A stretch of DNA of 64,000 nucleotides from Dehalococcoidia bacterium (GCA_034421335.1 DAOUKL010000073.1:13524-77523); one strand, 5' to 3'; shown: positions 9,263 through 54,546, counted from the first letter of the stretch. Numbers and translations: made by a program. Notes: generated from the sequence alone by a model not told the origin.

Positions 9263-9517
9263 TCTCTCCCTCCAAGGGAACCTTGTCCCGAAGGGCAGGG
9301 AGGGCGCCCCAGCCCCCTCCTCCAAAGTCGGGGGTGGGGCTGGGGTGGGGCTTGCGCGCGCAAAGCGCGCCCCTCCGTCATTCCTGCGAAAGCAGGAATC
9401 TCGCCTCCTGCCTCCCCCCGAGGGGAGATGCCCGAAGGCAGAGAGGGCGCCTCCGTCATTCCCGCGGAGGCGGGAATCCATCCCCCTGGGTTCGTGGTGA
9501 GCCTGTCGAACCACGGG
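9263..9517. repeat. Mosaic cluster of GC-rich hairpin repeat modules (order B,C,A,B,A,D)
   Basis: Contains gtcattcctgcgaaagcaggaatc, ctccccccgaggggagatgcccgaaggcagagaggg, a ccccctcc...tcggggg...ttgcgcgcgcaaagcgcgc module, and ggttcgtggtgagcctgtcgaaccacgg. Confidence 0.9.
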
Positions 9518-9573
9518 GCATTCTCAGGCGTAGGGCGATTATGTAAAGGTCTCGTCCAGGGAAGGACGCCCTC

Positions 9574-10776
9574 TCACCCCAGATCAATCGTCGGCGTCTG
9601 GTGCGCCAGAGCCGTCTCCTGGCGCGTCCGCGACGACTCCAGCATGGCGAGGCACACTTCCATCGTCGCCTTCGCCCACCGCCCGTGATGCACGACCGGA
9701 CGCCCCTCCGAGACCGCGTAGTACACCTCGTCGATGACGGCCCCGCGGCCCTGTACGCCGCGCCACGGGTCGGGCTCGATGAGCCTGAAACCGTCCGTCG
9801 TGTACGCCCCCACGCCCTCCGGCAGCATCCGAAGGTCGGCGCCCTCGCAGGCGACGATGAACGCGCCGAGTTCACCCTGCAGCAGCGACGGCGCGCCCTG
9901 GCTCGCGCGCTCGCGGGCCACGGACCGCTCACCGCCATAGCCCGTGCTGATGCGCATCGACGTCTCTTCCTCGGCGGAGCGAGCCGCGCGCAGCGCCCGG
10001 CGCGTCGCTCCGTACCGCTCAGCCTCTTTCGGGCCTCGTCCGCCGCTCAGTTCCGAAGAGTCGAAGTGGTCGTACCCACTGTAGGAGAGCGTCGCCACGG
10101 CGCCGTTCTCGAAATCGAGGAAGGCAGTGTAGGCGCCCTCCGTATGCCGCTGCGAGTCGAGGTCCAGCGCCGCCGCGCGAACGCTGCGCGCCATGCCGCC
10201 CGCGATGAACCGCGCCGCGTCCACCTGGTGCGGGACCTGGTTATACATGATGCCCCCGCCAAGCGCGGTGACGAGCTCCTCGGGGCGGCGCGGACGGTAC
10301 AGGAAATCCGTGTACGCCGTCGCAGTGATGAACCCCAGCTGGCCGAACGTCTCCTCGACGACCAGACGCCGCATCTGCTGCACCGTCGGGTTGAAGCTCG
10401 CTGTGTGTCCGACCACCAGGACGACGCCGGCCCGCTCGGCGGCGACGGTCATCCGCTCGCAATCGTCGAGCGTGAGCGCCATGGGCTTCTCCACGATGGC
10501 GTGCTTCCCGTGCGCCGCCGCGAGTTCCAGGTGTTCGGCGTGCAGCTCGTGCGGCGTCGCAATGTACACCGCGTCCACGTCCGCGCTCTTGCACAGCTCC
10601 GCGGCGTCCGAAAACGCCTTCCCCCCGAAGTCCGCCTCGAAGCGGTCGCGGTGCTGCTTGTGGAGGTCAGCCGCCGCCGTCACGCGGATGTCCGGATGCC
10701 TCCCCAGAGCCGACAGCATCCCGCTCCCCGCTCTCCCCAGGCCGATGACTCCGAACCGCAACTCCCGCCCGTCCAT
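9574..10776 (-). CDS. Gfo/Idh/MocA-family NAD(P)-dependent oxidoreductase (Pht4-type dihydrodiol dehydrogenase-like)
   Basis: Rossmann motif FGVIGLGRAGSGM and the AIVEKPMALT (EKP) motif. I moved the start to the ATG at 10776 (GGAGG Shine-Dalgarno), because the 27 upstream codons of the track ORF lie in a repeat module. Confidence 0.85.
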   Translation of the reverse strand: MDGRELRFGVIGLGRAGSGMLSALGRHPDIRVTAAADLHKQHRDRFEADFGGKAFSDAAELCKSADVDAVYIATPHELHAEHLELAAAHGKHAIVEKPMALTLDDCERMTVAAERAGVVLVVGHTASFNPTVQQMRRLVVEETFGQLGFITATAYTDFLYRPRRPEELVTALGGGIMYNQVPHQVDAARFIAGGMARSVRAAALDLDSQRHTEGAYTAFLDFENGAVATLSYSGYDHFDSSELSGGRGPKEAERYGATRRALRAARSAEEETSMRISTGYGGERSVARERASQGAPSLLQGELGAFIVACEGADLRMLPEGVGAYTTDGFRLIEPDPWRGVQGRGAVIDEVYYAVSEGRPVVHHGRWAKATMEVCLAMLESSRTRQETALAHQTPTIDLG

Positions 10777-10829
10777 CGCGCCTCCTTCCCTCTCCTTAAC
10801 CCTGCCCCGGAGGGGGAAGGAGTATGAAT

Positions 10830-10965
10830 TCTCCCCCATGGGAAACCCTTCCGTCATTCCCGCGAAGGCGGGAATCCATCCCCCTTGGGTTCGTGGTGAG
10901 CCTGTCGAACCACGGCCAGTTCTGCAAGGCCCCCCATGGGGGAGATGCCCGAAGGGCAGAGAGGG
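10830..10965. repeat. Mosaic hairpin repeat cluster (modules A,D,B)
   Basis: gtcattcccgcgaaggcgggaatccatcc, ggttcgtggtgagcctgtcgaaccacgg, gggggagatgcccgaagggcagagaggg. Confidence 0.9.
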
Positions 10966-12279
10966 CTACGCCGGGCAGTCCGGGTTCCCCGCCGTCACCT
11001 TCCGCCGCTCAACTGTGGAGTCGAACCACGACTCCTCGGAAGGAATGAGCACCGCGTCCGACCGGATGGCGTACGCCTCCGGGACCATCGCCTCATAGGG
11101 CGTTACGCCATTCTCGGCGAACGCCTTGGCTGCCCGGATCAGCCGCCGGCGCATCGAAATGATGCCCAGGTCCGACGTGCCGAGATGCTCCCTGGTGCGG
11201 TCGAATATCTTGCCCATGCTCAGTTGCGGAGCGGCATCCTGCGCCCAGAACTCGGCGATGCCCGAGAACGTCTCGTTCTTCTGCAATTCGCGGCTCTGGT
11301 TGAAGTCGTTCTCGATGGAGAGCGCCGGGCGCCACCGTCCGAACGGGGCGCTGCTGCGGGGAGCCCGGTTCTCTGGCGATATCGTCCACACCCCGGCCCT
11401 AGCCTGCATCGCCTCCCGCTGTTCGCCGGTGAAGGGGCGCGACGGGTGGAACGTCGCCCCGATGACGAACACGTTCTCGTCGTCGATGGGCACCCACGCG
11501 CGCCAGTTTCGCGTGGGGTCGTCCCCGTACGGGCCGGTCATCGTGTGGAACGGCATCAGGTGCTGGCTTATGCGCCAGTACCGCTGGCCGTCCGGCGCCT
11601 CACGGCCCGAGCCGATGCACACTCCGTAGTCGGTCTCCACCACCTGGAAACGCGGATGCGTGTCGTTCATGCGGATGGCGTCGACGCCCGCCCTCGGCGA
11701 GTTTGGGTCGAGATACAGCCGCGAGTGCACGAACGAAACGTGGCTCTGGTCGAGATCGCCCTCCATCCCCTGCACCCAGTTCGAGTACTGCACCCGCTTC
11801 GACGCCACGATGTGCGACTCCGGCAGGTCCAGCCACTCCAGCGCCGGCAGCGGAGGCGGCTCGCTCTTCGGCCCCATGTAAGTCCATATCACGCCCGCCC
11901 GCTCGACGACCGGGTACGACGGCTGCCGCACCTTGCCGTGGAAGTTGCTGTCGGGCGGCTCGCTGGGCATGTCCACGCAATGGCCCTCCACGTCGAACTT
12001 CCAGCCGTGGTAGATGCACCGCAGCCCGTCCTTCTCGTTTCGCCCGAAGTAGAGCGACGCCCCCCGGTGCGGGCATTGCTCGGCTATGAGCCCCGCCCTG
12101 CCCGACGAGTCCCGCACGGCCAGCAGGTCCTCCCCCAGCAGCCGCACTCGCTCCGGCGAGCCGTCCGCCTCGATCTCCCACGAGAAGAGGAACGGGATCC
12201 AGTACTGGCGGATCAACTCCCCCATGGGGGTTCCCGCCCCTACCCTCGTCATCAGTTCGTTGTCCGCAGTACTCAGCAT
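10966..12279 (-). CDS. Rieske non-heme iron oxygenase alpha subunit, phthalate-dioxygenase family (paralogue 2)
   Basis: CPHRGASLYFG...CIYHGWKF; SNWVQGMEGDLDQSHVSFVH. Start set at MLSTADNELMTRVGAGTPMGELIRQYWIP (ATG at 12279); the track ORF runs on to 12396. Confidence 0.9.
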   Translation of the reverse strand: MLSTADNELMTRVGAGTPMGELIRQYWIPFLFSWEIEADGSPERVRLLGEDLLAVRDSSGRAGLIAEQCPHRGASLYFGRNEKDGLRCIYHGWKFDVEGHCVDMPSEPPDSNFHGKVRQPSYPVVERAGVIWTYMGPKSEPPPLPALEWLDLPESHIVASKRVQYSNWVQGMEGDLDQSHVSFVHSRLYLDPNSPRAGVDAIRMNDTHPRFQVVETDYGVCIGSGREAPDGQRYWRISQHLMPFHTMTGPYGDDPTRNWRAWVPIDDENVFVIGATFHPSRPFTGEQREAMQARAGVWTISPENRAPRSSAPFGRWRPALSIENDFNQSRELQKNETFSGIAEFWAQDAAPQLSMGKIFDRTREHLGTSDLGIISMRRRLIRAAKAFAENGVTPYEAMVPEAYAIRSDAVLIPSEESWFDSTVERRKVTAGNPDCPA

Positions 12280-12445: not shown

Positions 12446-14182
12446 TTGGCGACGGCGACCCAGAACCCCCGCTACGAGGCGAACGAAAGCCCGTCTTGGC
12501 TCACTTCGCTGGGGTTCGGCCTGCAGTTCGCCATGATCGCGTCCGCCACGTTGCTCGTGACGCCGGTCGTCGTCGCTGAAGCGTCGGACCGTGGTGAGCC
12601 GTATGTCACGTGGATGGTGTTCGCCTCGCTGGTGGTCGTGGGGTTGTCCACGCTGCTACAGGTGCGACGCCTGGGGCCGCTGGGGGCGGGCGCGGCGCTC
12701 CCCATGGCCACCGCTCCGTTCGCGATTCCCTTCTGCATCACGGCGGTCGTCGACGGCGGTCCCGCGACGCTCTTAACGCTCTCTCTCGCCTCCGCGGTGT
12801 TCCAGTTGATCATCTCCAGGTGGCTCTTCATCCTCCGAAGGATCGTCACCCCTGTCGTCAGCGGCACGGTGATGATGATCCTGTCGGTTACGCTGGCGTC
12901 CGTCGTGTTCGCCCTGCTGGACGACACGGCTCGCGAGGAGCCGGTGGCCGCTCCCCTCACGGCGCTCGCGACGTTCGCAATCGTTATCGGGCTCATGCTG
13001 CGGGGAAGCGCCTTGTGGCGTTTGTGGGCGCCGGCCATCGGCATAGTCGTCGGATGTGTCGTCGCGGCGGCGTTCGGCATCTACGACCCCGCGAGGATCA
13101 CCGAGTCGACGTGGGCGGGCCTGCCGGCGGAGCGGCCGGCCCTCGGGCTGGATTTCAGCTCGGCGTTCTGGACCCTGCTGCCCGCGTTCCTGTTCATGGG
13201 CGTCATCATCTCCATCCAGGGGGACGGCGAGTCCATCGCGCACCAGCACGTCTCCCGCCGCGAGGCCCGGGCCATCGATTTCCGGGAGGTACAGGGCACG
13301 ATGGCGGGCGCGGGGATGAGCAACATGCTCGCGGGAGTCGCCGGGACCACGCCCAACGTCGTGAACCCCGGCATGGCGTCGTTCATACAGGTTACGGGCG
13401 TCGCGTCGCGTCGCGTGGGCTACTGCATCGGCGCCATCTTCCTCGTCGTCGCCTTCCTTCCCAAGCTCTCCGGCCTCTTCAGCAGCATACCCGGGCCGGT
13501 GATGGCGGGTTACCTCATCTTTATCGTGGGCACCCTGTTCGTCGACGGCGCCCGCACGGTTGTACAGTCGGAGCAGAACCGGCAGCGCCTCACCGCCGCG
13601 GGCGTCTCCTTCTGGTTGGGCGCGGCCTTCCACTTCGACCTCTTCACGCTGCCGAACCTCGGGTCGGTGTGGGGGCCGATGCTGGACAGCGCCATCACCA
13701 CGGGCGGTCTCGCCGTGGTCGTTCTGGTCCTCTTCCTCGAGGTCACCAAGCGGCGGCGGATGCGCTTCGAGTCCGAACTCGACGCCGACGCCCTCCCCGA
13801 CCTCTTCGCGTTCATCGAGCGCTTTGCCGAGAGCCGCCGCTGGAGCGACCCGATGAAGGAGCGCCTCAGCGCCGCCGCCGAGGAGACCCTGCTGACGCTC
13901 GCTCCGCTCGACCTAACCGGCGAGGCCGAGGAGCGCGAGCCGCGACGGCTCGTCGTGCTCGCCTCCAACGAGGGGCCCGTGGCGGAACTGGAATTCATCG
14001 GAGGCACGGACGAGCAAAACCTCGAAGACCGCATCCGGCAGCTCCAGCAGCACAGCGAGGAAATCACGTCGGAGGACGATATGTCGCTCCGCCTGCTGCG
14101 GCGCTACGCCTTGTCGGTGCGGCACCAGCAGTTCCACGGCTCCGACATCATCATGGTGCGCGTCGGCCCTCCCGCGGGGTAG
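12446..14182 (+). CDS. NCS2-family (xanthine/uracil-type) permease with a C-terminal cytoplasmic extension of about 130 aa, paralogue A
   Basis: TTG start at 12446, 6 nt after AAGGAG. TM core motifs IVTPVVSGTVMMILS and TTPNVVNPGMASFIQVTGVASRRVGY...IPGPVMAGY. The N-terminus QNPRYEANE parallels the paralogue's NENIRYEPDE. The upstream part of the track ORF is antisense to the Rieske gene. Confidence 0.75.
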   Translation: MATATQNPRYEANESPSWLTSLGFGLQFAMIASATLLVTPVVVAEASDRGEPYVTWMVFASLVVVGLSTLLQVRRLGPLGAGAALPMATAPFAIPFCITAVVDGGPATLLTLSLASAVFQLIISRWLFILRRIVTPVVSGTVMMILSVTLASVVFALLDDTAREEPVAAPLTALATFAIVIGLMLRGSALWRLWAPAIGIVVGCVVAAAFGIYDPARITESTWAGLPAERPALGLDFSSAFWTLLPAFLFMGVIISIQGDGESIAHQHVSRREARAIDFREVQGTMAGAGMSNMLAGVAGTTPNVVNPGMASFIQVTGVASRRVGYCIGAIFLVVAFLPKLSGLFSSIPGPVMAGYLIFIVGTLFVDGARTVVQSEQNRQRLTAAGVSFWLGAAFHFDLFTLPNLGSVWGPMLDSAITTGGLAVVVLVLFLEVTKRRRMRFESELDADALPDLFAFIERFAESRRWSDPMKERLSAAAEETLLTLAPLDLTGEAEEREPRRLVVLASNEGPVAELEFIGGTDEQNLEDRIRQLQQHSEEITSEDDMSLRLLRRYALSVRHQQFHGSDIIMVRVGPPAG

Positions 14183-14193
14183 CTTCCCCCACC

Positions 14194-14600
14194 TGTCTCC
14201 CCCCGAGGGGGAGATGCCCCGAAGGGGCCGAGAGGGCGCTCCGGCCCCCTCCCCCGAAGTCGGGGGAGGGCTGGGGTGAGGGTTTGCGCGCGTCAGCGCG
14301 CGCTCCGTCATTCCTGCGAAAGCAGGAATCTCGCCTCCATGTCTCCCCTCTTGCCTGTCATTCTGAGCGCAGCGAAGAATCTCGTCCGCTAGGCGCTCCG
14401 GCCCCCTCCCCCGAAGACGGGGGAGGGCTGGGGTGAGGGCGCTCCGTCATTCCTGCGGAAGCAGGAATCTCGCTCCCTGTCTCCCCCCGAGGGGAGGCGC
14501 CCGAAGGGGCAGAGAGGGCGCTCCGGCCCCCTCCCCCGAAGACGGGGGAGGGCTGGGGTGAGGGTTTGCGCGCGTCAGCGCGCACCCCGTCGTTCCCACG
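14194..14600. repeat. Large mosaic hairpin repeat cluster (about 10 modules: B,C,A,E,C,A,B,C and others)
   Basis: Three copies of ccggccccctcccccgaag[ta]cgggggagggctggggtgaggg, two of gtcattcctgcg[ag]aagcaggaatctcgc, and gtcattctgagcgcagcgaagaatctcg. Confidence 0.9.
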
Positions 14601-14670
14601 CCCGCCGTAACCTGCCCCGGCGGGGCGGCGTGCTAGACTCTTCTCCGAAACACTCCCAGGAGGAGACCTC

Positions 14671-15009: not shown

Positions 15010-15017
15010 CGCGCCGC

Positions 15018-16600: not shown

Positions 16601-16611
16601 GGCGCCTTGAC

Positions 16612-16905
16612 CGTTCTCCCCCCGAGGGGGAGATAGCCCGAAGGGGCAGAGAGGGCGGATCCGGCCCCCTCCCCCGAAGACGGGGGAGGGCCGGGGTGAG
16701 GGCTTGCGCGCGTCAGCGCGCCTCCCGTCGCCCGCGGAAGCAGGAATCCCGCCTCCTGTCTCCCCCCGAGGGGGAGATGCCCCGAAGGGGCAGAGAGGGC
16801 GAATCCGGCCCCCTCCCCCGAAGTCGGGGGAGGGCTGGGGTGAGGGCTTGCGCGCGCCAGCGCGCCTCCGTCGCCCGCGAAGGCGGGAATCCATCCCCCT
16901 TGGTT
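16612..16905. repeat. Mosaic hairpin repeat cluster (B,C,A,B,C,A)
   Basis: A two-fold B-C-A module series: ctccccccgagggggagat[ag]gccccgaaggggcagagagggcg..ccggccccctcccccgaag..gcgcgcg[tc]cagcgcgc..gcccgcg[ga]aagc[ag]ggaatcc. Confidence 0.9.
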
Positions 16906-16909
16906 CTCC

Positions 16910-17710
16910 ATGGGCAACGCCCTCCCAAGTGGTACCCTATTCCCAATGCCCTCCCTCGTTGCCGACAGCCTCCGACGCCTCGTTCGCTCTCTCACGCCCC
17001 ACTGGGCGACGCAACGCGCCCACCACCACCCCGAATCGCACCGGGGCGAGGGTTTCGCCCTGCGCGAGTTCGTGTTCGGCGCGAACGACGGCCTCGTCTC
17101 CAACACCGCGCTCGTTGCGGGCATCGCCGGCGGCACGTCCGACCCCGACATCGTCGTGCTCGGCGGCGTCGCCGGCATGGTCGCCGGCGCCCTCTCCATG
17201 GCCCTCGGCGCCTACGTCTCCACCAAGAGCGAGCGCGAGTTCCGTGAGGCCGAGCAGGCCCGCGAGCACTGGGAAGTCGAGCACATGCGCGAGCAGGAAC
17301 TCGCCGAGACCCGGCGCATCTTCCAGCTCAAGGGCATCACCGGGCCTCTCCTCGAAGAGGTGGTCGAGGTCGTCTCGCGCGACCACGACCAGTGGGTGAA
17401 GTTGATGATGCGGGAGGAACTCGGCTTCCCCGAGAGTCCGCCCCATCCCACGTTCTCGGCGATCCTGATGGGCGTCTCGTTCGCGATCGCGGCCTTCTTC
17501 CCCGTCGCGCCTTGGTTCCTGCTCGACGGCGCCCCCGCGCTCTGGTCGACGTTCGGCCTCTCCGGCGTCGCCCTCTTCGGAGTCGGCGCGTGGCGGGCGT
17601 CGCTCACGGAAGGGCGCGTGCTCCGCAAGGGCGCGGAGATGGTCTTGCTCGCCGGCGTAGCCGTCGCCGGCGCCTTCCTCATCGGCAGCGCCCTCGGCGT
17701 CGCCATCTGA
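16910..17710 (+). CDS. VIT1/CCC1-family iron/manganese transporter
   Basis: FGANDGLVSNTALVAGIAGG, a central acidic helical region (EREFREAEQAREHWEVEHMREQELAE), and C-terminal TM helices. Confidence 0.8.
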   Translation: MGNALPSGTLFPMPSLVADSLRRLVRSLTPHWATQRAHHHPESHRGEGFALREFVFGANDGLVSNTALVAGIAGGTSDPDIVVLGGVAGMVAGALSMALGAYVSTKSEREFREAEQAREHWEVEHMREQELAETRRIFQLKGITGPLLEEVVEVVSRDHDQWVKLMMREELGFPESPPHPTFSAILMGVSFAIAAFFPVAPWFLLDGAPALWSTFGLSGVALFGVGAWRASLTEGRVLRKGAEMVLLAGVAVAGAFLIGSALGVAI

Positions 17711-17720
17711 GACGGCGCCG

Positions 17721-18632
17721 ATGGCCCTTCGCCTCCCGCCGCTCGCCGCCGCCGGGCTTGCCGCGCTGCTCCCGGCGCTTATCTCCTCCTGCTCCGACAG
17801 CGCGCCTGCTCCCACCCCCGACCCCTACAGCGGGCTGCTGACCGCCTCGGAGTTCGTCACGGGCGCCAACCGCTTTCCGTTCGGACTCGTCTCGCGCGAC
17901 GGCGCGTTCCTCGATCAGGCGGACGTAACCGTGCGCTTCTTCCGCATCGAGGGCGGCTCGGCGGTCTTCCACGCCGAGGCCGACGCCGTTTGGCGGCGGG
18001 CGGAGGGGACGACGCCGCACCTGCACCCTGACGGCGAACTGCACCTCCACCTCGACTTTCGCGGCTTCTACGTCGTCGACAGCGCCGACTTCCCGGCGCC
18101 CGGCGTATGGGCGGCGGAGTTCGACGTCGCGGACGGCCCGCCCACACGCCGCGCGATCTTCGAGGTGCATACCGAGGCGGTCGCGCCGGCGGTCGGCGAG
18201 CGCCCTCCCGCAACCCGCAACCCCACACTGCGCGATGGGACGCCGTTCGCCGAACTCTCCACCCGGGCGGTGGAGCGCGACGAACTGCATAACGTGTCGG
18301 TCGCCGAGGCGCTGGAGACCGGAGCGCCGTTCGTAGTCTTCTTCGCGTCGCCCCAATTCTGCACCAGCGCTCTCTGTGGGCCGGTTACGGACACCCTCGA
18401 CGCCGCGCGAGCCGAACTGGGCGGCGCGGTCGAGTTCATCCACCTCGAACCCTGGGACCTCAACGCCGCTCGCAACGAGGGCCGACTCGTTCCCGCGCCC
18501 GTCATGCTCGAATGGCGCCTCCCCACGGAGCCCTGGACGTTCGTGGTAGGCGCCGATGGCCGCATAGCCGCCCGCTACGAGGGCCTCGTCGCCGCCGAGG
18601 AAGTCCTCTCAGCCCTCCGCCAAGCCCTGTAA
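17721..18632 (+). CDS. Secreted lipoprotein with a C-terminal thioredoxin-like fold (function unknown)
   Basis: Lipobox LISSC|SDS. The C-terminal half reads PFVVFFASPQFCTSALCGPV...PWTFVVGADGRIAARYEG, resembling TlpA/SCO-type thioredoxin folds. Confidence 0.5.
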   Translation: MALRLPPLAAAGLAALLPALISSCSDSAPAPTPDPYSGLLTASEFVTGANRFPFGLVSRDGAFLDQADVTVRFFRIEGGSAVFHAEADAVWRRAEGTTPHLHPDGELHLHLDFRGFYVVDSADFPAPGVWAAEFDVADGPPTRRAIFEVHTEAVAPAVGERPPATRNPTLRDGTPFAELSTRAVERDELHNVSVAEALETGAPFVVFFASPQFCTSALCGPVTDTLDAARAELGGAVEFIHLEPWDLNAARNEGRLVPAPVMLEWRLPTEPWTFVVGADGRIAARYEGLVAAEEVLSALRQAL

Positions 18633-18639: not shown

Positions 18640-18878
18640 CCCCCATCTGTCATTCTGGGCGCAGCGAAGAATCTCGAGCGAAGCGCTCGGGGAGAGGGTC
18701 GAGAGTGCGCCCCCTCCCGTCGCCCGCGAAGGCGGGAATCCATCCGGCCCCTCCCCCCGTGGGGGAGGGCTGGGGTGGGGGCTTGCGCGCGAAGCGCGCA
18801 TCCGTTCTCCCCCCGAGGGGGAGATGCCCCGAAGGGGCAGAGAGGGCGGATTGCCCCCCAAAGGGGCAGCGTGGGCTC
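18640..18878. repeat. Mosaic hairpin repeat cluster (E,A,C,B)
   Basis: tgtcattctgggcgcagcgaagaatctcg, gcccgcgaaggcgggaatccatcc, gggggagggctggggtggggg cttgcgcgcgaagcgcgc, ctccccccgagggggagatgccccgaaggggcagagagggcg. Confidence 0.9.
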
Positions 18879-20295: not shown

Positions 20296-20398
20296 GGAAC
20301 TCCTTCCGTCATTCCCGCGCCCTTCCGTCATTCCTGCGAAAGCAGGAATCTCGGCCCCCTCCCCCGAAGGGCAAGAGGGCGCGAAGCGCGCCCCCGCG
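20296..20398. repeat. Hairpin repeat cluster (half-A, A, C-like)
   Basis: ccgtcattcccgcgc..ccgtcattcctgcgaaagcaggaatctcg..gccccctcccccgaagggcaagagggcgcgaagcgcgc. Confidence 0.85.
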
Positions 20399-20824
20399 TC
20401 ATGCGCCTCCCTCAGCCTCCCCGCCGCCGCGCAGCAGACGGCTCCCCACTCCCACCGTAATCACCGTGTACAGCGCATCCACCGCCGGGAAGTAGGCGAT
20501 GTGCGAGATGACCACCGCCTCGCCGGTCTCGCTCTCGGGGTTGAGCAACCAGAACCATTGCCAGAAGAACAGCATCGTCAGCGCGACGGCGCCGTAGAAG
20601 GCGGCGTTCGACTGCAGACTGTCGCCGTCCGGCCCGCTCCACTTCCGCATGACGCTGAACGCCAGCGCGATGAGCGTCCCTGCCGCCATGAACCAGTTGA
20701 GCACGTCCCACACCGGATAGTCGGGCGAGGCGTCGTGGTACAGGGGTGTCAGCATGAGGTTGAGGAACACGGCGGCGCCGGTCCCCAGCAGGTACATCCC
20801 CAGGAGCCTTTTCACGATATCCAT
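20399..20824 (-). CDS. Small integral membrane protein (about 141 aa, 4 predicted TM), unknown function
   Basis: Start set at MDIVKRLLGMYLLGTGAAVFLNL (ATG at 20824). It follows the permease gene by 19 nt. The track ORF extends into the permease gene in another frame. Confidence 0.5.
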   Translation of the reverse strand: MDIVKRLLGMYLLGTGAAVFLNLMLTPLYHDASPDYPVWDVLNWFMAAGTLIALAFSVMRKWSGPDGDSLQSNAAFYGAVALTMLFFWQWFWLLNPESETGEAVVISHIAYFPAVDALYTVITVGVGSRLLRGGGEAEGGA

Positions 20825-23164: not shown

Positions 23165-23350
23165 CTCCGGCGCCCGCGAAGGCGGGAACCCACTCTCCCC
23201 CTCTGGGGGAGATGCCCGAAGGGCGGAGAGGGCGCACACACCCTCCCCCGAAGACGGGGGAGGGCTGGGGAGAGGGTTTGCGCGCCGAAGCGCGCACCCC
23301 GTCGTTCCTGCGAAAGCAGGAACCCCGCAGCCACTCCCCCTCGGGGGCGC
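23165..23350. repeat. Mosaic hairpin repeat cluster (A,B,C,A)
   Basis: gcccgcgaaggcgggaaccc, ctccccctctgggggagatgcccgaagggcggagagggcg, ccctcccccgaagacgggggagggctggggagagggtttgcgcgccgaagcgcgc, gtcgttcctgcgaaagcaggaacc. Confidence 0.9.
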
Positions 23351-29099: not shown

Positions 29100-30483
29100 C
29101 CAGTCCGGCCACATCCTCCACAACCTCCTCCTCTTCGGACGCCTCCTCCGAATGCTCGGACTCGACGTCCACCCCGGAAGAATGCTCGACGCCGTCCGCG
29201 TGCTCGACGATATCGGCCTCGCGCGCAAGGCCGACGTGCGCGCCGCTCTCCGCACTCTGCTCGTCCACCGGAGGGACGACCTCCCCGTGTTCGATGAGGC
29301 GTTCGACGTGTTCTGGCGTCAGCGCAAGGACAGCACGTCGACTCTCGACCTGCGCTCGATGGGCGAGCGCCGGCGCTACCGCAGCGTCGAGGCCGCCGCC
29401 CCTCCACCCGGCTCCGGCGAGGCGGTCGACGACGAGTCCGGCGCGGAGGATGCCGGCGACCAGGTCGTGCTCACGCGGACGTTCAGCGCCCGCGAGGTGC
29501 TCCGCACGCGCGACTTCGCGGAGTTCACGCCGGAGGAGACGGCGCAGGCGCGGCTCCTGCTCGCCGAACTCGCGTGGCGGCCCGGCCTTCGCCGCACCCG
29601 CCGCAAGCAGCCCGGCAGAGGCCCGGCGCTCGATCTCCGCAGAACGCTGCGGGCGAACGCCCGACTCGGCGGCGAGCCCGCCCGCCTCCTCCGGCTCCGG
29701 CGCAAGGAGAAGCCGCGCAGGCTGGTGGTCGTCTGCGACGTGAGCGGTTCGATGGAGCGTTACACTCGCATGCTCCTGCACTTCATCCACAGCCTCTACG
29801 GCGGACTCGACCGCCACGTCGAGGCCTTCCTGTTCGCCACCCGTCTCACCCGCGTCACCCGCCATCTCGCCCAACGCGACATTGACCGCGCCGTCGGCGA
29901 GGTCGCCAAGGCCGTGCCCGACTGGTCCGGCGGCACGCGCATCGGCCAGGCGCTCAAGGAGTTCAACTTCCGGTGGGCGCGCCGCACCCTCGGATGGGGC
30001 TCCGTCGTCCTCATCGTCTCCGACGGCTGGGACCGGGGCGACCCGGAACTGCTCGCCCGCGAGATGGAGCGCCTGCGGCGCAGCTGCAGCCGCCTCATCT
30101 GGCTCAATCCCCTCGCCGGCGCCGAGGCGTACGAGCCGTTGACGCAGGGGATGCGCGCCGCGTCCCCCTATGTTGACGACCTCCTGCCCGTGCACAACCT
30201 CGCCGCGCTCATCGACCTCGCCGAGCTCCTCAACACCCTCCCCACGCGCCACGCCCATACCACCCTCCCCACAAGAGGGGGGAGGGTCGAGCGCGAAGCG
30301 CGAGGGGAGAGGTCCGAGGGCCGCGCATCCGTCGTTCCTGCGAAAGCAGGAACCTCGCCCCCCTCTCCTACTCCGGAGGACAAGCCCGAGGGACAAACAG
30401 GACAACGCTCGTGGCACGCCGGCGCCAATCCCACCTTCCGCCACCCTCTCTGGGGCCGCGGCGACGACCGGCGGCGGGAATAG
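29092..30483 (+). CDS. coxE: VWA-domain protein (CoxE-like) with a repeat-encoded C-terminal tail
   Basis: MIDAS motif VVVCDVSGSM. N-terminus LLLFGRLLRMLGLDV is typical of CoxE. The last ~80 codons (from about 30240) read through hairpin repeat modules. Confidence 0.85.
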   Translation: MASQSGHILHNLLLFGRLLRMLGLDVHPGRMLDAVRVLDDIGLARKADVRAALRTLLVHRRDDLPVFDEAFDVFWRQRKDSTSTLDLRSMGERRRYRSVEAAAPPPGSGEAVDDESGAEDAGDQVVLTRTFSAREVLRTRDFAEFTPEETAQARLLLAELAWRPGLRRTRRKQPGRGPALDLRRTLRANARLGGEPARLLRLRRKEKPRRLVVVCDVSGSMERYTRMLLHFIHSLYGGLDRHVEAFLFATRLTRVTRHLAQRDIDRAVGEVAKAVPDWSGGTRIGQALKEFNFRWARRTLGWGSVVLIVSDGWDRGDPELLAREMERLRRSCSRLIWLNPLAGAEAYEPLTQGMRAASPYVDDLLPVHNLAALIDLAELLNTLPTRHAHTTLPTRGGRVEREARGERSEGRASVVPAKAGTSPPSPTPEDKPEGQTGQRSWHAGANPTFRHPLWGRGDDRRRE

Positions 30484-30636
30484 GGCGCATCCGGCCCCCT
30501 CCCCCGAAGACGGGGGAGGGCTGGGGTGAGGGCTTACGCGCGAAGCGTGCATCCGTCGTTCCTGCGAAAGCAGGAACCTCGCCCCCTCCCTGTCTCCCCC
30601 CTTGGGGGAGATGCCCGAAGGGCAGCGAGGGACGAA
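30240..30636. repeat. Mosaic hairpin repeat cluster (F,A,...,C,A,B), partly inside the coxE 3' end
   Basis: ccaccctccccacaagaggggggagggtcgagcgcgaagcgcgaggggagaggtccg, gtcgttcctgcgaaagcaggaacctcgcc (twice), ccggccccctcccccgaagacgggggagggctggggtgaggg, ctccccccttgggggagatgcccgaagggcag. Confidence 0.9.
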
Positions 30637-34774: not shown

Positions 34775-34960
34775 TCCGTCGCCTGCGAAAGCAGGAATCT
34801 CGCCCCTGTTCCCCCTCCCCTGAAGTCGGGGGAGGGCTGGGGTGAGGGTTTGCGCGCGAAAGCGCGCACTCCGTTCTCCCCCTGAGGGGGAGATGCCCCG
34901 AAGGGGCAGAGAGGGCGTCCGGCCCCCTCCCCCGAAGTCGGGGAGGGCCGGAGGGCGCCC
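34775..34960. repeat. Mosaic hairpin repeat cluster (A,C,B,C)
   Basis: gtcgcctgcgaaagcaggaatctcgcc, ccccctcccctgaagtcgggggagggctggggtgagggtttgcgcgcgaaagcgcgc, ctccccctgagggggagatgccccgaaggggcagagagggcg. Confidence 0.9.
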
Positions 34961-36219: not shown

Positions 36220-36224
36220 ACGGC

Positions 36225-36316
36225 GCAGCGCGCATCCGTTATCCGCGAAGGCGGGAATCCATCCGGCTCCCTCCCCCGAAGACGGGGGAGGGAGGGGGTA
36301 GAGGGCGCTTCGCCCT
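36225..36316. repeat. Hairpin repeat cluster (A,C-like)
   Basis: atccgcgaaggcgggaatccatcc, ggctccctcccccgaagacgggggaggg. Confidence 0.85.
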
Positions 36317-37372: not shown

Positions 37373-37602
37373 AACCCCTCCCCACAGTGTGGGGGAGGGA
37401 ACGCCTCTCCCTCGACGAGACTGTGCACCCCTGCGTCATTCCCGCGAAGGCGGGAATCCATCCGGCCCCCTCCCCCGAAGACGGGGGAGGGCTGGAGTGA
37501 GGGGTTACGCGCGTCAGCGCGCATCCGTCGCCCGCACCTTACCCATCGCCCGTGAAAGCGGGAATCTCGCCTCCCTGTCTCCCCCCGAAGGGCGGAGAGG
37601 GC
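37373..37602. repeat. Mosaic hairpin repeat cluster (F-like,A,C,A,B)
   Basis: cccctccccacagtgtgggggaggg, gtcattcccgcgaaggcgggaatccatcc, ggccccctcccccgaagacgggggagggctggagtgagggg ttacgcgcgtcagcgcgc, cccgtgaaagcgggaatctcgcc. Confidence 0.9.
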
Positions 37603-38607: not shown

Positions 38608-38682
38608 AGCCGACCTCCTCCAGCCAGTCCGGTTGGCCATAGTCTACACGAATAGCGCAACCGCCAACCATGAAGAGCGCCC

Positions 38683-38962
38683 TTCCGTCATTCCCGCGAA
38701 GGCGGGAATCCATCCCCTTTCTCCCCCTGAGGGGGAGATGCCCGAAGGGCAGAGAGGGCATCCGGTTCCCTCCCCCGAAGTCGGGGGAGGGCTGGGGTGA
38801 GGGTTTACGCGCGAAGCGCGTCTCCGTCTCCCCCTGAGGGGGAGATGCCCGAAGGGCAGAGAGGGCATCCGGCCCCCTCCCCCGAAGTCGGGGGAGGGCT
38901 GGGGTGAGGGTTTGCGCCCGCTAGGGCGCGCTCCGTTCTCCCCCCTCGGGGCAGCGCGCGCA
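38683..38962. repeat. Mosaic hairpin repeat cluster (A,B,C,B,C,B-like)
   Basis: gtcattcccgcgaaggcgggaatccatcc, then two tandem B-C units (ctccccctgagggggagatgcccgaagggcagagagggcatccgg..cctcccccgaagtcgggggagggctggggtgaggg). Confidence 0.9.
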
Positions 38963-38970
38963 ACCGTCCT

Positions 38971-41083: not shown

Positions 41084-41135
41084 CGTTCCCGTCTCCCCCC
41101 GTGGGGGAGATGCCCCAAAGGGCAGAGAGGGCCGC
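41084..41135. repeat. Single module-B hairpin repeat
   Basis: gtctccccccgtgggggagatgccccaaagggcagagagggcc. Confidence 0.85.
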
Positions 41136-41997: not shown

Positions 41998-42002
41998 TGT
42001 AC

Positions 42003-42115
42003 CCCTCCCCCCGAGGGGAAGATGCCCCGAAGGGGCAGAGAGGGCGGATTGGCCCCCTCCCCCGAAGTCGGGGGAGGGCTGGGGTGAGGGTTGCGCGCGT
42101 CAGCACGCTCTCCGG
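42003..42115. repeat. Hairpin repeat cluster (B,C)
   Basis: cccctccccccgaggggaagatgccccgaaggggcagagagggcg, ggccccctcccccgaagtcgggggagggctggggtgagggttgcgcgcgtcagc. Confidence 0.9.
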
Positions 42116-42157
42116 ATCGCGCCTGCGGCGCGTCACCCCACCATCCCTCCGGGGCTG

Positions 42158-42208
42158 CCCCCCACACCTGTGTGTGGGGGGGGGGGGGGGGGCGCAGGCC
42201 CCCCCCCC
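42158..42208. other. Homopolymer/hairpin region: CCCCCCACAC..GTGTGGGGGG hairpin running into G17, then C10
   Basis: G run at 42176-42192 (17 nt) and C run at 42199-42208 (10 nt), counted directly. Confidence 0.8.
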
Positions 42209-42315
42209 TTGCAGGCCTCGTCATCCTTGTGCCATAATACTGACATACCCCCAACACAACGCCACTACCGCGCGCGGATGAGCCGCCGGAGCCACCAGAG
42301 GCCCGGCGGCTCTTT

Positions 42316-42358
42316 CTATTCCCCCTCCCCCCGAGGGGGAGGGCCGGGGAGAGGGCAG
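42316..42358. repeat. Hairpin repeat module directly upstream of the terminase-like gene
   Basis: ccccctccccccgagggggagggccggggagagggcag. The same unit recurs at about 44005-44040. Confidence 0.8.
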
Positions 42359-42372
42359 AAAGGAGGACCGCC

Positions 42373-43896
42373 ATCGAACTCGAACGCTACCGCAACGACC
42401 CCCTCGGCTTCGTCCGCGATGTCCTCCACGAAGCAGGCGCCCCCTACCCCAAGCAGGAGGAGATGCTCATGGCCCTCGCCGCCGACAAGCGCAGAGTCTC
42501 CGTCGTCGGTTGCAACTCCTCCGGCAAGGACTGGGCCGCCGCACGCGCCATCATCTGGTGGATCGAGACACGACCCCAGGCCAAGGTCATCGTCTCCGGC
42601 CCCACCCTCCGGCAGGTGAAGGAGATCGTCTGGGACGAGCTCCGAGCAGCCCACGCAGCCTGCGGTCACCGCCTCGCCGGCGTCGTCCGCGCGGGCGAGT
42701 ACCGCGCTGGACCCGACCGCGTCGCGCTCTGCCTCACCTCCAACAACCAGCACAACCTGCAGGGCTTCCACTCCCCCGAGTTGCTCGTCGTCATCACCGA
42801 GGCGCAGGGCGTCAAGCAGGCGTACTTCGAGGCCCTCAAGCGCCTCAACCCCAAGAAGATGCTGCTGCTCGGCAACCCCCTCGCGCTCACCGGCGAGTTC
42901 TACGACTCCCATCACGGCAAGAGTCCGCTCTATGAGCGCGTCGAAATCTCCGCCTACGATTCCCCCAACGTTCAGCAGGGGCGCCTCGACGCCCTTCCCG
43001 GCCTCGTCACTCCCGAGGACGTCGACGAACGCCGCCGCGAGTGGGGCGAGGACTCCCCCCTCTACATCGCGTCCATCCTCGGACAGTTTCCGCCATCCCT
43101 CGAAGACTCCCTCACCTCCCGCGTCCACGTCGACGCCGCCGTCCAGCACTGGCTGCGCGAAACCCCGCCCGAAGCGGCGGGGGGCCTCCGTCATTCCCGC
43201 GCATCCTCCCGTCATTCCCGCGAAAGCGGGAATCTCGCAGCCTTCGCGGACGGGGGCGAGGTTCCTGCTTCCGCAGGAACGACGGAACCCGGCCGCACGT
43301 CTCCCGTCATTCCCGCGCAGGCGGGAATCCACTCTCCCCCGCTGGGGGAGATGCCCGAAGGGCAGAGAGGGCCCTGGCGCATGGGCGTCGACGTCGCGCG
43401 CTACGGCGCCGACAAGTCGATTATCTGCCTGCGACGCGGCCACCGAGTCGAACGGCTCATCGCCTTCGAGAAGATGGACACCATGCGGCTCGCCGGCGAG
43501 GTCCGCGACATCGCCGAGGCCCTCGGTGTCCCGGCGGTGTTCGTCGACGAGACCGGCGTCGGCGGTGGGGTGGTCGACCGCCTGAAGGACTTGTGCGTCC
43601 CCGTCATCGGCGTCGAGGCAGGCGGCAGGGCCTACCGCCCCTCCCAGTTCGCCGACCTGCACGCCGAGACGTACTGGGAGGTCGCGCGGCGTCTGCGCGA
43701 GGGCGACATCTCCCTCCCGCCCGACGACGAGCTCGCGGGGCAGCTGCTCGCGCAGCGCTACGAGGTCTCCACCACGGGGCGCATCCACCTCGACAGCAAG
43801 GCCAAACTGCGGAGGAAGGGCGTCGCTTCCCCCGACCGCGCCGACGCCCTCGCCCTCGCCTTCATGGAGCCCCCCTCCATGCAGATATGGTTCTAG
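42373..43896 (+). CDS. Phage terminase large subunit-like protein (ATPase + RNase H-like nuclease), orphan, with a repeat-derived insertion
   Basis: Walker A VVGCNSSGKD and Walker B-like LLVVITEAQG. Nuclease half MGVDVARYGADKS...VFVDETGVGGGVVD...SPDRADALALAF. The track ORF starts at ATG 42463, but the conserved N-terminus (IELERYRNDPLGFVRDVL..PKQEEML) continues upstream in frame to an ATC at 42373, 6 nt after AAGGAGG. Confidence 0.7.
   Translation: MELERYRNDPLGFVRDVLHEAGAPYPKQEEMLMALAADKRRVSVVGCNSSGKDWAAARAIIWWIETRPQAKVIVSGPTLRQVKEIVWDELRAAHAACGHRLAGVVRAGEYRAGPDRVALCLTSNNQHNLQGFHSPELLVVITEAQGVKQAYFEALKRLNPKKMLLLGNPLALTGEFYDSHHGKSPLYERVEISAYDSPNVQQGRLDALPGLVTPEDVDERRREWGEDSPLYIASILGQFPPSLEDSLTSRVHVDAAVQHWLRETPPEAAGGLRHSRASSRHSRESGNLAAFADGGEVPASAGTTEPGRTSPVIPAQAGIHSPPLGEMPEGQRGPWRMGVDVARYGADKSIICLRRGHRVERLIAFEKMDTMRLAGEVRDIAEALGVPAVFVDETGVGGGVVDRLKDLCVPVIGVEAGGRAYRPSQFADLHAETYWEVARRLREGDISLPPDDELAGQLLAQRYEVSTTGRIHLDSKAKLRRKGVASPDRADALALAFMEPPSMQIWF
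43160..43375. repeat. Hairpin repeat modules (A,A,inverted A,A,B) lying inside the terminase-like ORF
   Basis: ccgtcattcccgcgc, ccgtcattcccgcgaaagcgggaatctcgc, ggttcctgcttccgcaggaacgacgg, ccgtcattcccgcgcaggcgggaatccac, tctcccccgctgggggagatgcccgaagggcagagagggcc. Confidence 0.9.
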
Positions 43897-43911
43897 GCCA
43901 TGCAGGCCAGT

Positions 43912-44150
43912 CCCACCCTCCCCACAAGAGGGGGGGAGGGTCGAGCGAAGCGAGGGGAGAGGTCCGGAGGAGGTCGGGGGAGACTTTTCCGGCCCCCTCC
44001 CCCCGAGGGGGAGGGCCGGGGAGAGGGCAGAGGAGGTCGGGGGAGAGAATCGCAGTTGCAGGCGGCGCGCTTCGCCCTCTCTGCCCTTCGGGCATCTCCC
44101 CCTCAGGGGGAGAAATCGGAAGCCCCGACTTCGGGGGCGGGGGGAGGGGA
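43912..44150. repeat. Mosaic hairpin repeat cluster (F, B/C variants in both orientations)
   Basis: cccaccctccccacaagagggggggagggtcgagcgaagcgaggggagaggtccgg, ccctccccccgagggggagggccggggagagggcag, ccctctctgcccttcgggcatctccccctcagggggaga (inverted B). Confidence 0.9.
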
Positions 44151-49846: not shown

Positions 49847-49932
49847 GGGATGTACTCCTCGATGTGCGCCGCGCGCGGCGGGTGGACGGTTGATTCGTTG
49901 GACAGGGGGATTGTACACGTCGCAGGCAAGAG

Positions 49933-50168
49933 TGGTTCGTGGTTCGACAGGCTCGCCACGAACCGCGGGCGAGATTCCCGCTTTCGCGGGAATGACGGGA
50001 GGAGTGTGGGAATGACGGAGCGGGTGCGGCCCTCTTTGCCCTTCGGGCATCCCTCCACGGGTGAAGGGTTGGGTGGGCGCCCACGAAGGGCGCCCCTACG
50101 CCAGCAGACCCCTCCCCCCGCGCACTTTCGTGCGCTCGACCCTCCCCACTCTTGTGGAGAGGGTGGAA
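49933..50168. repeat. Mosaic hairpin repeat cluster (inverted D,A,half-A,B,...,F)
   Basis: tggttcgtggttcgacaggctcgccacgaacc, gagattcccgctttcgcgggaatgacgg, gggaatgacgg, ccctctttgcccttcgggcatc, ctcgaccctccccactcttgtggagagggtgg. Confidence 0.9.
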
Positions 50169-50188
50169 CAGGCACTTCCGGCCCTTCG

Positions 50189-53103: not shown

Positions 53104-53214
53104 AGGCGCTGCCTTTCTGGTTGGTGGACTGTGGCGCCCTTTCACGAGGGCTGAATCAGCAGTATAAGCGAATTAGGACGGGGGACGTTTGGCAAGCCCC
53201 AAGCCCCCTTCCTC

Positions 53215-53445
53215 GAACCTCTCCCCGCCGCTTCGCGGCGACCCTCCCCCCTCCTGTGGGGAGGGTGGGATTGCGCCTGCGGCGCCCCGCCCTCTCTGCC
53301 CCTGCGGGCATCTCCCCCTCGGGGGGAGACAGGATGCGCGCAGCGCGCGTAAAGGCGAGATTCCTGCTTCCGCAGGCGACGGAGGCGCGCTTTCGCGTAA
53401 ACCCTCTCCCCTACCCCTCCCCCTCGGGGGGAGGGGGCAATCCGC
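53215..53445. repeat. Mosaic hairpin repeat cluster (inverted F,B,C,A variants)
   Basis: gcgaccctcccccctcctgtggggagggtggg, ccctctctgcccctgcgggcatctccccctcggggggaga, gcgcgcagcgcgcg, gagattcctgcttccgcagg, cccctccccctcggggggaggggg. Confidence 0.9.
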
Positions 53446-53508
53446 CCCTGTCCGCCCTTGCGCTATGCTTCGGGGGAGTGTTGTTCGCGGGGTGGAAAGG
53501 AGCGGGGT

Positions 53509-54441
53509 ATGGGAACAATCCGGTTGCTGTGGCGGGACGCCGACCGGCTCCCTCACCTGTACGCGGTTCGGCGCGCGGCGGCGGCCTACGGCACGGAGGT
53601 CGAGCTTCAGCGCCAGGGCGGGCAGGAGTACGCGGAGCTGCTGTTCGACGGTCGGGCGGAGATGCTGGCGGAGAACTACTGGAACCAGCAGCTCAACCGA
53701 GCGCAAGGGACGCCCATCGTCGCCGTGGCCGCCGCGGTGAACACCATCAACGAGCGCCTGTACGTCCGCCCCGGCGTCACCAGCCTCGCGGAACTGCGGG
53801 GCAAGCGCATCGCGGTGCGCGACGCCCGCCCGACGAACCTCATCGACCCGCTCTGGCTTCGCCGCGCCGGTCTCGCCGACGCCGAGGTCGTGCTGACGCC
53901 CGACGCGGACGTGGGCCGCTGGGCGACGTGGAAGCGGGTCGTCGAGGGTGACTGCGACGCGGCGATCGTGACCAACCTGTTCTCTGACGCCGCCGTAGAA
54001 GCGGGGCTCTCGCCGCTCGACCTGGGGCCGTTCGGGTTCCTCGGCGGCGTGGTGTTCATGACCTCCGCCGACCTGCTGGAGGAGCGCGGCGCAGACATCG
54101 AGAACGTGGTGCGGGGGGCGTTCGACGCGGCGACGCTGTTCCGCAACGACAAGGCGGCTGCGCTCGACGTGATGGCGTCCATCCCGGAGGGCTTGATGAA
54201 GGCGCCAGGCGCCACGGTCGACACGCCGGAGGAGCGGGAGCGGGTCCACCGCCACCTCGCGGAAGAGCTGGCCGATCCGCCGATGCCGACGCCGGAGGCC
54301 ATCGGCAACTTTTGCGACATGGCGGTGGACGCCTACCCGGAACTGGCCGGCTACAACCCGCTGCAGATGTGGGACCTGCGCATCGCCAGCCGCATCCACG
54401 ACGAGCGCCGGCTTGCGGACGGCCCGGCGGGGCGCGATTGA
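53509..54441 (+). CDS. NMT1/THI5-like (NitT/TauT-type periplasmic-binding-protein fold) protein without a signal peptide
   Basis: ATG at 53509, 7 nt after AAGGAG; 310 aa. ...LAELRGKRIAVRDARPTNLIDPLWLRRAGL... is typical of this fold. No N-terminal hydrophobic segment. Confidence 0.6.
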   Translation: MGTIRLLWRDADRLPHLYAVRRAAAAYGTEVELQRQGGQEYAELLFDGRAEMLAENYWNQQLNRAQGTPIVAVAAAVNTINERLYVRPGVTSLAELRGKRIAVRDARPTNLIDPLWLRRAGLADAEVVLTPDADVGRWATWKRVVEGDCDAAIVTNLFSDAAVEAGLSPLDLGPFGFLGGVVFMTSADLLEERGADIENVVRGAFDAATLFRNDKAAALDVMASIPEGLMKAPGATVDTPEERERVHRHLAEELADPPMPTPEAIGNFCDMAVDAYPELAGYNPLQMWDLRIASRIHDERRLADGPAGRD

Positions 54442-54466
54442 CAATCCGCCGGTCGGCTCGTATAAC
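54438..54466 (+). promoter_or_regulatory. Sigma70-like promoter for Rieske paralogue 5
   Basis: TTGACA (54438-54443), 17 nt, then TATAAC (54461-54466). It is embedded in the shared 15-mer GCGATTGACAATCCG. Confidence 0.5.
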
Positions 54467-54507
54467 CCCCCGCGTATGCGCCCCTGAATTGCAGGGGCGC
54501 GCGCAGG

Positions 54508-54546
54508 TTTCCTTCGTTCCGTGGTTCGACAGGTTCACCACGAACC
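54508..54546. repeat. Single module-D repeat (inverted)
   Basis: ccgtggttcgacaggttcaccacgaacc. Confidence 0.8.

Follow-up and report, generated by a model that had tools for sequence, protein, structure and literature searches.

Co-oriented mosaic arrays of CGTC-1/NTS-type hairpin repeats track GC skew in a Dehalococcoidia-like chromosome segment

Several short palindromic repeats of bacteria have been catalogued together with the enzymes that handle them, and two of these systems come close to the repeats described here. The CGTC-1 type of repetitive extragenic palindromic (REP) sequence has an unpaired CGTC head (or TGTC or CCTC in its place), an 8-bp stem starting with AT, a 4-nt loop and a CCA tail, and it has been equated with dRS3 of Neisseria and RPE-6 of Rickettsia (Di Nocera et al. 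2013, PMC3733652). In Neisseria, CGTC-1 repeats are found within large mosaic intergenic regions; the CGTC repeats came without a dedicated transposase, were unlinked to tyrosine transposases in that survey and were called 'orphan' (PMC3733652). Recently, the Ssn family of GIY-YIG nucleases (cd10448) was characterised; Ssn binds the NTS hairpin on single-stranded DNA (ssDNA) only and does not bind RNA, and it cuts just upstream of the hairpin, leaving the reverse strand, double-stranded DNA and RNA uncut (Chenal et al. 2025, PMC11893778). Ssn depends critically on the three nucleotides that precede the palindrome and on the C that directly follows it; the ssnA genes stand in an NTS-ssnA-NTS arrangement, hundreds of NTS-type motifs per genome cluster around genes, and SRM motifs and Ssn homologues occur across many phyla (PMC11893778). 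Here we analyse a 64,000-nt stretch of DNA from a Dehalococcoidia bacterium (GCA_034421335.1, DAOUKL010000073.1:13524-77523; the whole stretch is called the window), in which arrays of GC-rich hairpin repeats, designated modules A to G, fill most intergenic gaps of the central part.

We propose that these arrays are CGTC-REP/NTS-SRM mosaics laid out like the Neisseria intergenic mosaic (NIME), with an Ssn nuclease as partner and a polarity linked to replication, and we put the probability of this explanation as a whole at roughly 60%. The arrays are largely explained already: the core module is catalogued and its enzyme was characterised in 2025. What is new here is that most companion modules are lineage-specific, and that all modules show a strict co-orientation following a replication-type skew.

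The annotation (blastn-short, ten consensus queries) contains 77 non-overlapping module copies, ~2.4 kb in total: 22 of A, 18 of C, 16 of B, 11 of G, four each of D and F, and two of E. Between 9171 and 54600 there are 22 intergenic gaps of 40 nt or longer, and copies are present in 18 of these, as well as in two coding regions. Modules account for 2.2 kb of the 5.9 kb of intergenic DNA in this interval; the gene calls are based on codon-position GC and were checked against the genes called on the public scaffolds. Modules are absent from 1-9170, from 54600-64000 and from the 10 kb that precede the window. Pattern searches returned 15 matches for A, six for B, four for D and two for E and none in shuffled sequence, and the same families were recovered by an independent repeat finder; an 11-mer repeat map of the window was too noisy at 68% GC. 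The initial annotation, made from the sequence alone, had described six or more modules filling nearly every gap, and all six are found at the places it named. A seventh, G (GCGCGC-N3-4-GCGCGC), had been merged into C.

Module A (CGTC-ATTCCYGC-GRRR-GCRGGAAT-C) is the core of the arrays. Its head is CGTC or TGTC, its stem, ATTCCYGC/GCRGGAAT, runs for 8 bp from AT, and its loop, GRRR, has 4 nt. Among 25 aligned copies, G7, T8 and C9 are at least 90% conserved and C30, directly after the palindrome, is invariant; GTC stands directly before the stem in 20 of 20 anchored copies. The 28-nt NTS consensus of Neisseria, CGTCATTCCCGCGMAVGCGGGAATCYRG, matches the window ten times at three or fewer mismatches, where none is expected, and six of the ten matches carry one mismatch. 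On sequence grounds, module A belongs to the CGTC-1 REP/NTS-SRM kind. The modules had been thought unlike any family that could be named. This stands for B, C, D, F and G, which have no described counterpart, but not for A, nor for E, which is tentatively linked to Ssn; with its core module in a catalogued superfamily, the claim of an unnamed family is removed.

The comparison with the described systems shows both likeness and difference. Head, AT-starting 8-bp stem, 4-nt loop and short unpaired tail (CCA in subfamily A1) are as in CGTC-1, and so is the location of the copies, mostly intergenic with some inside genes. However, head-to-head dimers are the rule and clusters are rare in the CGTC-1 survey, whereas the window has co-oriented singletons within arrays, with one inverted A pair only (43209/43255); the CTCGCC tail of subfamilies A2 and A3 also differs, and Chloroflexi is not among the five phyla that the survey lists. 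The NIME (Parkhill 2000, cited in PMC3733652) likewise consists of dRS3/NTS-type hairpins interleaved with other short repeats in large intergenic mosaics. It is the closest known layout, rather than the bacterial interspersed mosaic elements (BIMEs) driven by REP-associated tyrosine transposases (RAYTs). To our knowledge, the companion modules B, C, D, F and G are apparently unrelated in sequence to the Neisseria RS units, and a strict single orientation and a preferred module order are outside what has been described for the NIME.

The residues critical for Ssn correspond in the alignment of module A to the conserved GTC and the invariant C, and module A has every sequence feature reported as needed for Ssn binding and cutting. 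Clustering the open reading frames (ORFs) of the loci fetched with module A yielded a protein of ~95 aa, which consists of a single GIY-YIG domain (PF01541) and is encoded in 12 of the fetched loci (tblastn). Ten of the 12 have an A-type hairpin 18-90 nt ahead of the start codon and an inverted copy directly after the stop. A GIY-YIG gene flanked by A-type hairpins is the published NTS-ssn-NTS architecture, recovered in these loci. Ssn homologues 86-94% identical to the protein found here are located on two contigs, of 3,298,779 and 2,911,394 bp; both are taken to be Chloroflexi chromosomes that also carry homologues of the terminase-like gene discussed below. On the larger contig (locus L264), the sequence on either side of the Ssn-like gene, TGTCATTCCGAGCGGAG...GAGGAATCTC, is related to module E but longer, and through this likeness to hairpins flanking Ssn-like genes in Chloroflexi, module E may tentatively be tied to Ssn as well.

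The published account of NTS/SRM and Ssn does not include Chloroflexota and does not discuss GC-skew polarity, and the window copies, head-to-tail in multi-module arrays, are unlike the arrangement it describes. Our analysis would extend the Ssn/NTS system to a Chloroflexota-like lineage, probably host-associated or sponge-type, in which the repeats make up more than one-third of the intergenic DNA of the region. As a separate observation, an IS110-family transposase lies at 1183-2178 of L264, ~1.8 kb from the Ssn-like gene of this 3.3-Mb Chloroflexi genome. IS110 elements target REP-type hairpins.

The most informative feature of the arrays is their polarity, which the initial annotation missed, having described modules used in both orientations. 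The polarity is strict: left of 44050, 67 of 68 modules are on the '+' strand, and right of it all nine are on the '-' strand. The flip falls in one intergenic gap that a single ENA scaffold covers, and it is kept in L023, a sister-strain contig from a second sample. A bias relative to transcription, which had been raised as a possibility, is not seen in the window, where orientation is independent of gene strand, '+' modules lying in seven gaps between '-' genes and in four gaps between '+' genes. A regression of the GC skew at third codon positions (GC3 skew) in the window on gene strand and chromosome side gave a side term of +0.144 +/- 0.02, as large as the strand term of -0.147, with the change at ~44 kb.

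The same relation was followed across the 120 loci of a metagenome scan. Those with a GC content of 60% or more, with genes on the two strands and with all modules facing one way numbered 38. Among them, the '+' loci had a mean strand-corrected GC3 skew of -0.056 and the '-' loci one of +0.098 (Mann-Whitney p = 1.2e-4, r = -0.62), and a joint logistic fit assigned -1.12 per standard deviation to skew and +0.35 to read-through transcription. The orientation-skew rule is obeyed by 14 of 15 multi-copy loci, and L011, a locus from another genome, fits it too. Module orientation is set by the side of the chromosome and tracks GC3 skew, not the direction of transcription. The leading strand is usually G-rich; assuming this here, the leading-strand template contains the CGTC strand both left and right of the switch, and we infer that the strand cleavable by Ssn stays on that template. 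Leading and lagging strands are mentioned neither in PMC3733652 nor in PMC11893778, and a full-text search for literature on REP orientation and the lagging strand found only work on IS200/IS605.

We suggest, tentatively and at somewhat less than even odds, that Ssn-type repeats are oriented in this manner genome-wide, with the cleavable strand always on the leading-strand template, and that the polarity is a footprint of Ssn on the ssDNA of replication forks. If so, the arrays would mark the direction of replichores in uncultured genomes, the 44-kb switch would mark an origin or a point of skew shift, and the 'orphan' CGTC repeats of 2013 would gain both an enzyme and a replication-linked life cycle. 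The polarity would link Ssn motifs to fork ssDNA, beyond transformation alone. It is a concrete, testable clue to the role of Ssn and its motifs outside Neisseria, a question left open by the work on Ssn (PMC11893778).

The mechanism that we envisage is as follows. The host genome would encode one or more Ssn-type GIY-YIG nucleases elsewhere, and the nuclease would bind the folded hairpin on ssDNA and cut just upstream of it, on the CGTC strand only. The lagging-strand template, as the main source of long-lived ssDNA, would carry only the non-cleavable complement. Two possibilities could produce the polarity: first, selection against self-cleavage at forks; second, strand-specific copying of modules at forks. 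The role of companion hairpins would fall to B, C, D, F and G, for which no partner is known; these would be gained, lost or exchanged, seemingly as intact units, at junctions with a common YCCG motif. Effects at the RNA level, such as protection of mRNA 3' ends, would be secondary.

Several points weigh against this explanation. No ssn gene was found in the window or in ~100 kb of sequence from the same or sister strains, and the Ssn partner is therefore unproven for the host organism. The tie to Ssn is limited to A and, tentatively, E, while B, C, D, F and G account for more than half of the copies. As for the polarity, ten of the 38 loci are opposite in sign, in a test that uses crude GC3-based gene calls; L021, from a related 2.9-Mb genome, has little skew and is uninformative; and the copies downstream of genes in the metagenome loci are weakly co-oriented with upstream transcription (53 versus 26). 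Placing the cleavable strand on the leading-strand template also assumes the usual G-rich leading strand. Finally, the window contains one switch, DnaA boxes occur at chance level and no AT-rich stretch is present near 44 kb; the switch could therefore be the endpoint of an old inversion instead of an origin.

These last points are also what favours the alternative that survives best, in which the polarity is unrelated to replication. Local duplication or gene conversion would keep the orientation of the repeats, and an old inversion at 44 kb would have flipped skew and repeats together. The single switch agrees with it, as do the missing DnaA boxes and AT-rich unwinding region and the conversion-like, subfamily-type differences among orthologous copies. 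However, the relation between orientation and skew is also seen in the 38 unrelated metagenome loci and in L011, and an inversion would still imply that the repeats were oriented along the skew beforehand. We regard this alternative as improbable and retain the replication-linked polarity, in which an origin or an old inversion could each account for the 44-kb switch itself.

Around the switch, the GC3 skew changes sign at 43.9-47 kb, independently of gene strand and in the same gap as the repeat flip. No convincing dif-like site was seen by eye near it; the candidate at 42.24 kb, CATAATACTGACATAC, is better explained as a promoter. We also rejected the idea that module C has a KOPS-like G-rich tail, since the tail has no match to GGGNAGGG and the sign of the skew is origin-like, not terminus-like.

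It is also conceivable that the modules act mainly on RNA, as transcription terminators or stabilisers of mRNA 3' ends. Such roles are established for E. coli REPs (PMC3733652), the hairpins are stable, and in the metagenome loci most copies are located downstream of genes (79 versus 33), with the weak co-orientation given above. Yet no module has a T-run, and the seven terminator-like sites found at 9-29 kb, a number equal to chance, all lie outside the arrays. Modules are present in three of the four divergent gaps, which contain promoters only, and some are translated in frame within an ORF; the orientation in the window is independent of gene strand, and published Ssn does not bind RNA (PMC11893778). 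RNA-level roles cannot account for the polarity, and we consider it unlikely that they are the main function.

The initial annotation had compared the arrays with the REP/BIME mosaics mobilised by RAYTs, and the general class was right: E. coli REP/BIMEs and Pseudomonas REPINs are also short extragenic palindromes in mosaic clusters, and the loci related to module A share with REP/BIME-RAYT systems a nuclease gene flanked by its own repeats. The proposed partner, a RAYT, is not supported. Were the modules classical REP/BIME elements (REPINs) copied by a RAYT of the IS200/IS605 type, their mosaic clusters of intergenic palindromes would be expected, and the polarity could result as well, because IS200/IS605 enzymes act on ssDNA hairpins at the lagging-strand template (PMC3333891, PMC6006769). 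However, REP/BIME-RAYT systems combine a GTAG tag, an HUH/Y1 enzyme and inverted doublets, whereas the heads here are CGTC or TGTC and not GTAG, the enzyme of the related loci is GIY-YIG, and the copies stand head-to-tail. Neither a motif scan nor tblastn, with queries modelled on YafM of E. coli and IS200 of Salmonella, revealed a RAYT- or IS200-like ORF in 0.92 Mb of the window and related loci; the sole weak match is an amidohydrolase-like ORF, judged from its translation and without a family scan. In the 2013 survey, CGTC repeats did not flank any tyrosine transposase (PMC3733652). A RAYT-driven origin is very improbable, and a GIY-YIG partner of the Ssn type is preferred.

That the repeats are an artefact of assembling or scaffolding low-complexity GC-rich reads, as might be suspected from the two ENA scaffolds of one sample that make up the window and both end inside an array (42079-42134) and from a G17/C10 run at 42170-42210 that is missing in the sister strain, is already refuted by the same modules in independent assemblies, samples, metagenome-assembled genomes (MAGs) and collections, namely the sister-strain contigs L023, L269 and L270 from other samples, the Dehalococcoidia MAG L011 and JGI metagenomes, and by L023, which spans the 42.1-kb join. 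The homopolymer tract is a separate matter. It consists of a G17 run and then a C10 run within a small palindrome (42160-42210), the two ENA scaffolds stop just before it, and L023 has no such homopolymers there; either a hypervariable tract or an artefact of sequencing or assembly could account for it. In practice, the arrays break short-read assemblies, as scaffold ends fall inside them, and inflate ORF calls in high-GC MAGs.

The modules differ in their ability to fold. As ssDNA, modules A, B, F and G fold far more stably than shuffled sequences (z -3.3 to -4.6; -8.9 kcal/mol for A), whereas folding is marginal for C (z -1.9) and weak for D (z -1.6), and E is unstructured (z +0.8), so that the description of every module as a stem-loop holds for four of them. 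Of the two stable mini-hairpin sequences said to sit in many loops, GCGAAAGC forms the loop of subfamily A2 and is for this reason indeed over-represented (12 observed versus 3.1 expected), but GCGAAGC is at chance (23 versus 22.4).

Structural conservation is real. In the stem of A, 96% of the cells are paired, and compensatory variants are present (pair 18-27 is CG in 12 copies and UA in 10; pair 12-32 is AU in 14 and GC in five), but they mark a few subfamilies and not many independent events. In B, hairpin 2 keeps its pairing through matched length changes, with stems of 4, 5, 6 and 7 bp, and one B copy of L023 has the entire hairpin 2 stem swapped (TGTCGC/GCGACA). The differences between orthologous copies of sister strains are switches of the subfamily type; we therefore read the stem variants as structure-preserving replacement or conversion rather than many independent compensatory mutations. 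Stem variants cannot tell an RNA hairpin from a DNA hairpin.

The order of the modules had been described as variable. Instead, the modules favour the cycle A>B>C>G>A, in which D, E and F are interspersed and D comes after A; the dominant successions are C>G (nine), B>C (seven), A>B (five), G>A and G>B (four each) and A>D (three). The A-B-C-G cycle repeats in tandem with periods of 144 and 107 nt, and A, B and C each begin after a common YCCG junction. Eight copies of A share a recurrent truncation of the 5' arm (GTCG--CC). In 22 loci in all, a 5' half-copy of A (CGTCATTCCCGC) is followed, after N4-14, by a full copy (CGTCRTTCC). Such half-copies may be scars of cleavage and repair, or of copying. 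Examples lie at 20306-20350 and 43188-43234 of the window and at 9680 and 11733 of L021, and in L198 and L254 the half-copy is repeated several times.

At the gathering threshold, no Rfam family was found in the window or in eight related loci, and a permissive search of the window returned only miRNA noise and sub-threshold matches to whalefall-1 (RF01762). The best of these, with 28.4 and 27.1 bits against a gathering threshold of 37, lie on the minus strand at 14166-14217 and 14446-14500, over hairpin 1 of B, with a good alignment confined to the first helix. Whalefall-1, an orphan motif, may belong to this broad class of repeats too.

The '+' arrays begin with B'-C-G-A2-B-A1-D at 9260-9516 and A1-D-B at 10851-10966, each in a gap between two '-' genes; the first is missing as a whole in sister strain L269. 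The largest array, B-C-G-A2-E-C-A2-B'-C-G (14186-14600), lies between two '+' genes. It is followed by two tandem B-C-G-A super-units with the 144-nt period (16605-16903), by E-A1(truncated)-C'-G-B in a convergent gap (18640-18870), by a half-copy with A2, a C/B remnant and G (20302-20400), and by A1(truncated)-B-C-G-A3 in a divergent gap (23165-23345). F-A3 at 30260-30362 is read through by the 3' end of a VWA/CoxE ORF, and C-G-A3-B occupies the convergent gap at 30470-30632. Further right on the same strand are A2(truncated)-C-G-B-C (34775-34960), A1(truncated)-C (36235-36310), an F-like hairpin followed by A1-C-G-A2-B' (37380-37600), and A1-B-C-G-B-C-G with the 107-nt period (38680-38967).

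Closer to the switch, a lone B (41088-41133) precedes B-C-G at 42002-42113, where both ENA scaffolds break, and a C-like hairpin (42320-42360) stands directly before the ribosome-binding site of the terminase-like gene. Inside that gene, at 43184-43373, a half-copy, A2, A3, A1 and B are translated in frame; this A3 is the sole '-' copy left of 44050. The last '+' modules, F and a C/B-like hairpin (43911-44030), and the first '-' modules, B and C (44065-44145), share the one gap in which the orientation switches. The remaining '-' arrays are D-A2 with a degenerate B and F (49937-50170), F-B-G-A2(truncated)-B' in a divergent gap (53220-53440) and a lone D between two '+' genes (54519-54546).

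Arrays change fast between strains that are ~95% identical. L023 is 94-97% identical to and syntenic with the window at 34.9-52.4 kb, and nine orthologous gaps hold different module strings. Its module content differs at 34775-34960; it has seven modules and an extra gene at 36235-36310, an additional A2-B unit with an intact B at 37380-37600, A2-F-A2-G-F-A1-B in the gap at 38680-38967, and B in place of the C-like hairpin at 42320-42360. L269 shows a clean empty site, with no target duplication seen, where the window and L270 carry a 300-nt array. Relative to window 36220-36316 and 49847-50188, L023 has extra DUF433 and DndB-like genes at 1857-2129 and 16720-17829. These lie exactly in gaps that bear arrays in the window, which places the arrays at sites where genes are gained and lost.

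Arrays are also tolerated in frame inside a gene. The ORF at 42469-43896 (+), of 475 aa, is terminase-large-subunit-like; the name comes from one homologue so called at JGI, and the ORF has no Pfam family and no adjacent phage genes. Many Chloroflexi genomes encode homologues, 57-84% identical, and a chromosome often has two of them. The modules sit in the linker that joins the conserved N- and C-terminal halves; the linker has 211, 202 and 208 nt in three genomes, with the frame always kept, and other homologues have short linkers or different module translations. This linker is a hotspot for in-frame hairpin modules. Rickettsia palindromic elements (RPEs) are likewise inserted in frame in genes (PMC3733652). 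As in RPEs, modules A and B of the window are translated as the linker of a conserved protein; unlike RPEs, there is one clear in-frame case and one read-through of an ORF 3' end, and most copies are intergenic. The GC3 skew of the terminase-like ORF, -0.36 to -0.46, is more extreme than that of its neighbours in three of three genomes.

The modules have different distributions. Module B occurs in Chloroflexota MAGs, among which L011 carries A, B, C, D, E and G. It is nearly exact (31-43 nt) in the Betaproteobacteria Dentiradicibacter and Propionivibrio (L007, L009, L010, L013, L019 and L020) and in a 45%-GC Anaerolineaceae MAG (L006, L014-L018); in both groups it forms part of larger repeats whose flanks are conserved and which often lie at contig ends. 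Module A with a CTCGC tail is present in more than 120 JGI contigs, and with any tail in more than 120 IMG/VR contigs. The JGI loci with A contain D in ten cases, G in two and B, C or F in none. A metagenome scan with C and viral scans with B and D gave no matches.

The host is probably a high-GC bacterium of the Chloroflexota (Dehalococcoidia-like). The window carries ordinary metabolic genes, including peptide ABC transport, a CO-dehydrogenase-type cluster, lysA and holB, together with five paralogous LigXa-type Rieske oxygenase genes at 7845, 10966, 33372, 46598 and 54521 that share DNA stretches 65-80% identical. At 1561-3923 and 3934-6342 (-) lies a tandemly duplicated gene pair, encoding an SBP_bac_5 solute-binding protein and a collagen-triple-helix-repeat protein, whose two copies are 79-95% identical in DNA. 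At 58320-63998 (-), running off the end of the window, a protein of more than 1890 aa has cadherin, fn3 and Big_9 domains and internal repeats of 300-600 nt. This giant cadherin/fn3 protein and the collagen-like genes are 'eukaryote-like' and suggest a host-associated lifestyle, for example with sponges.

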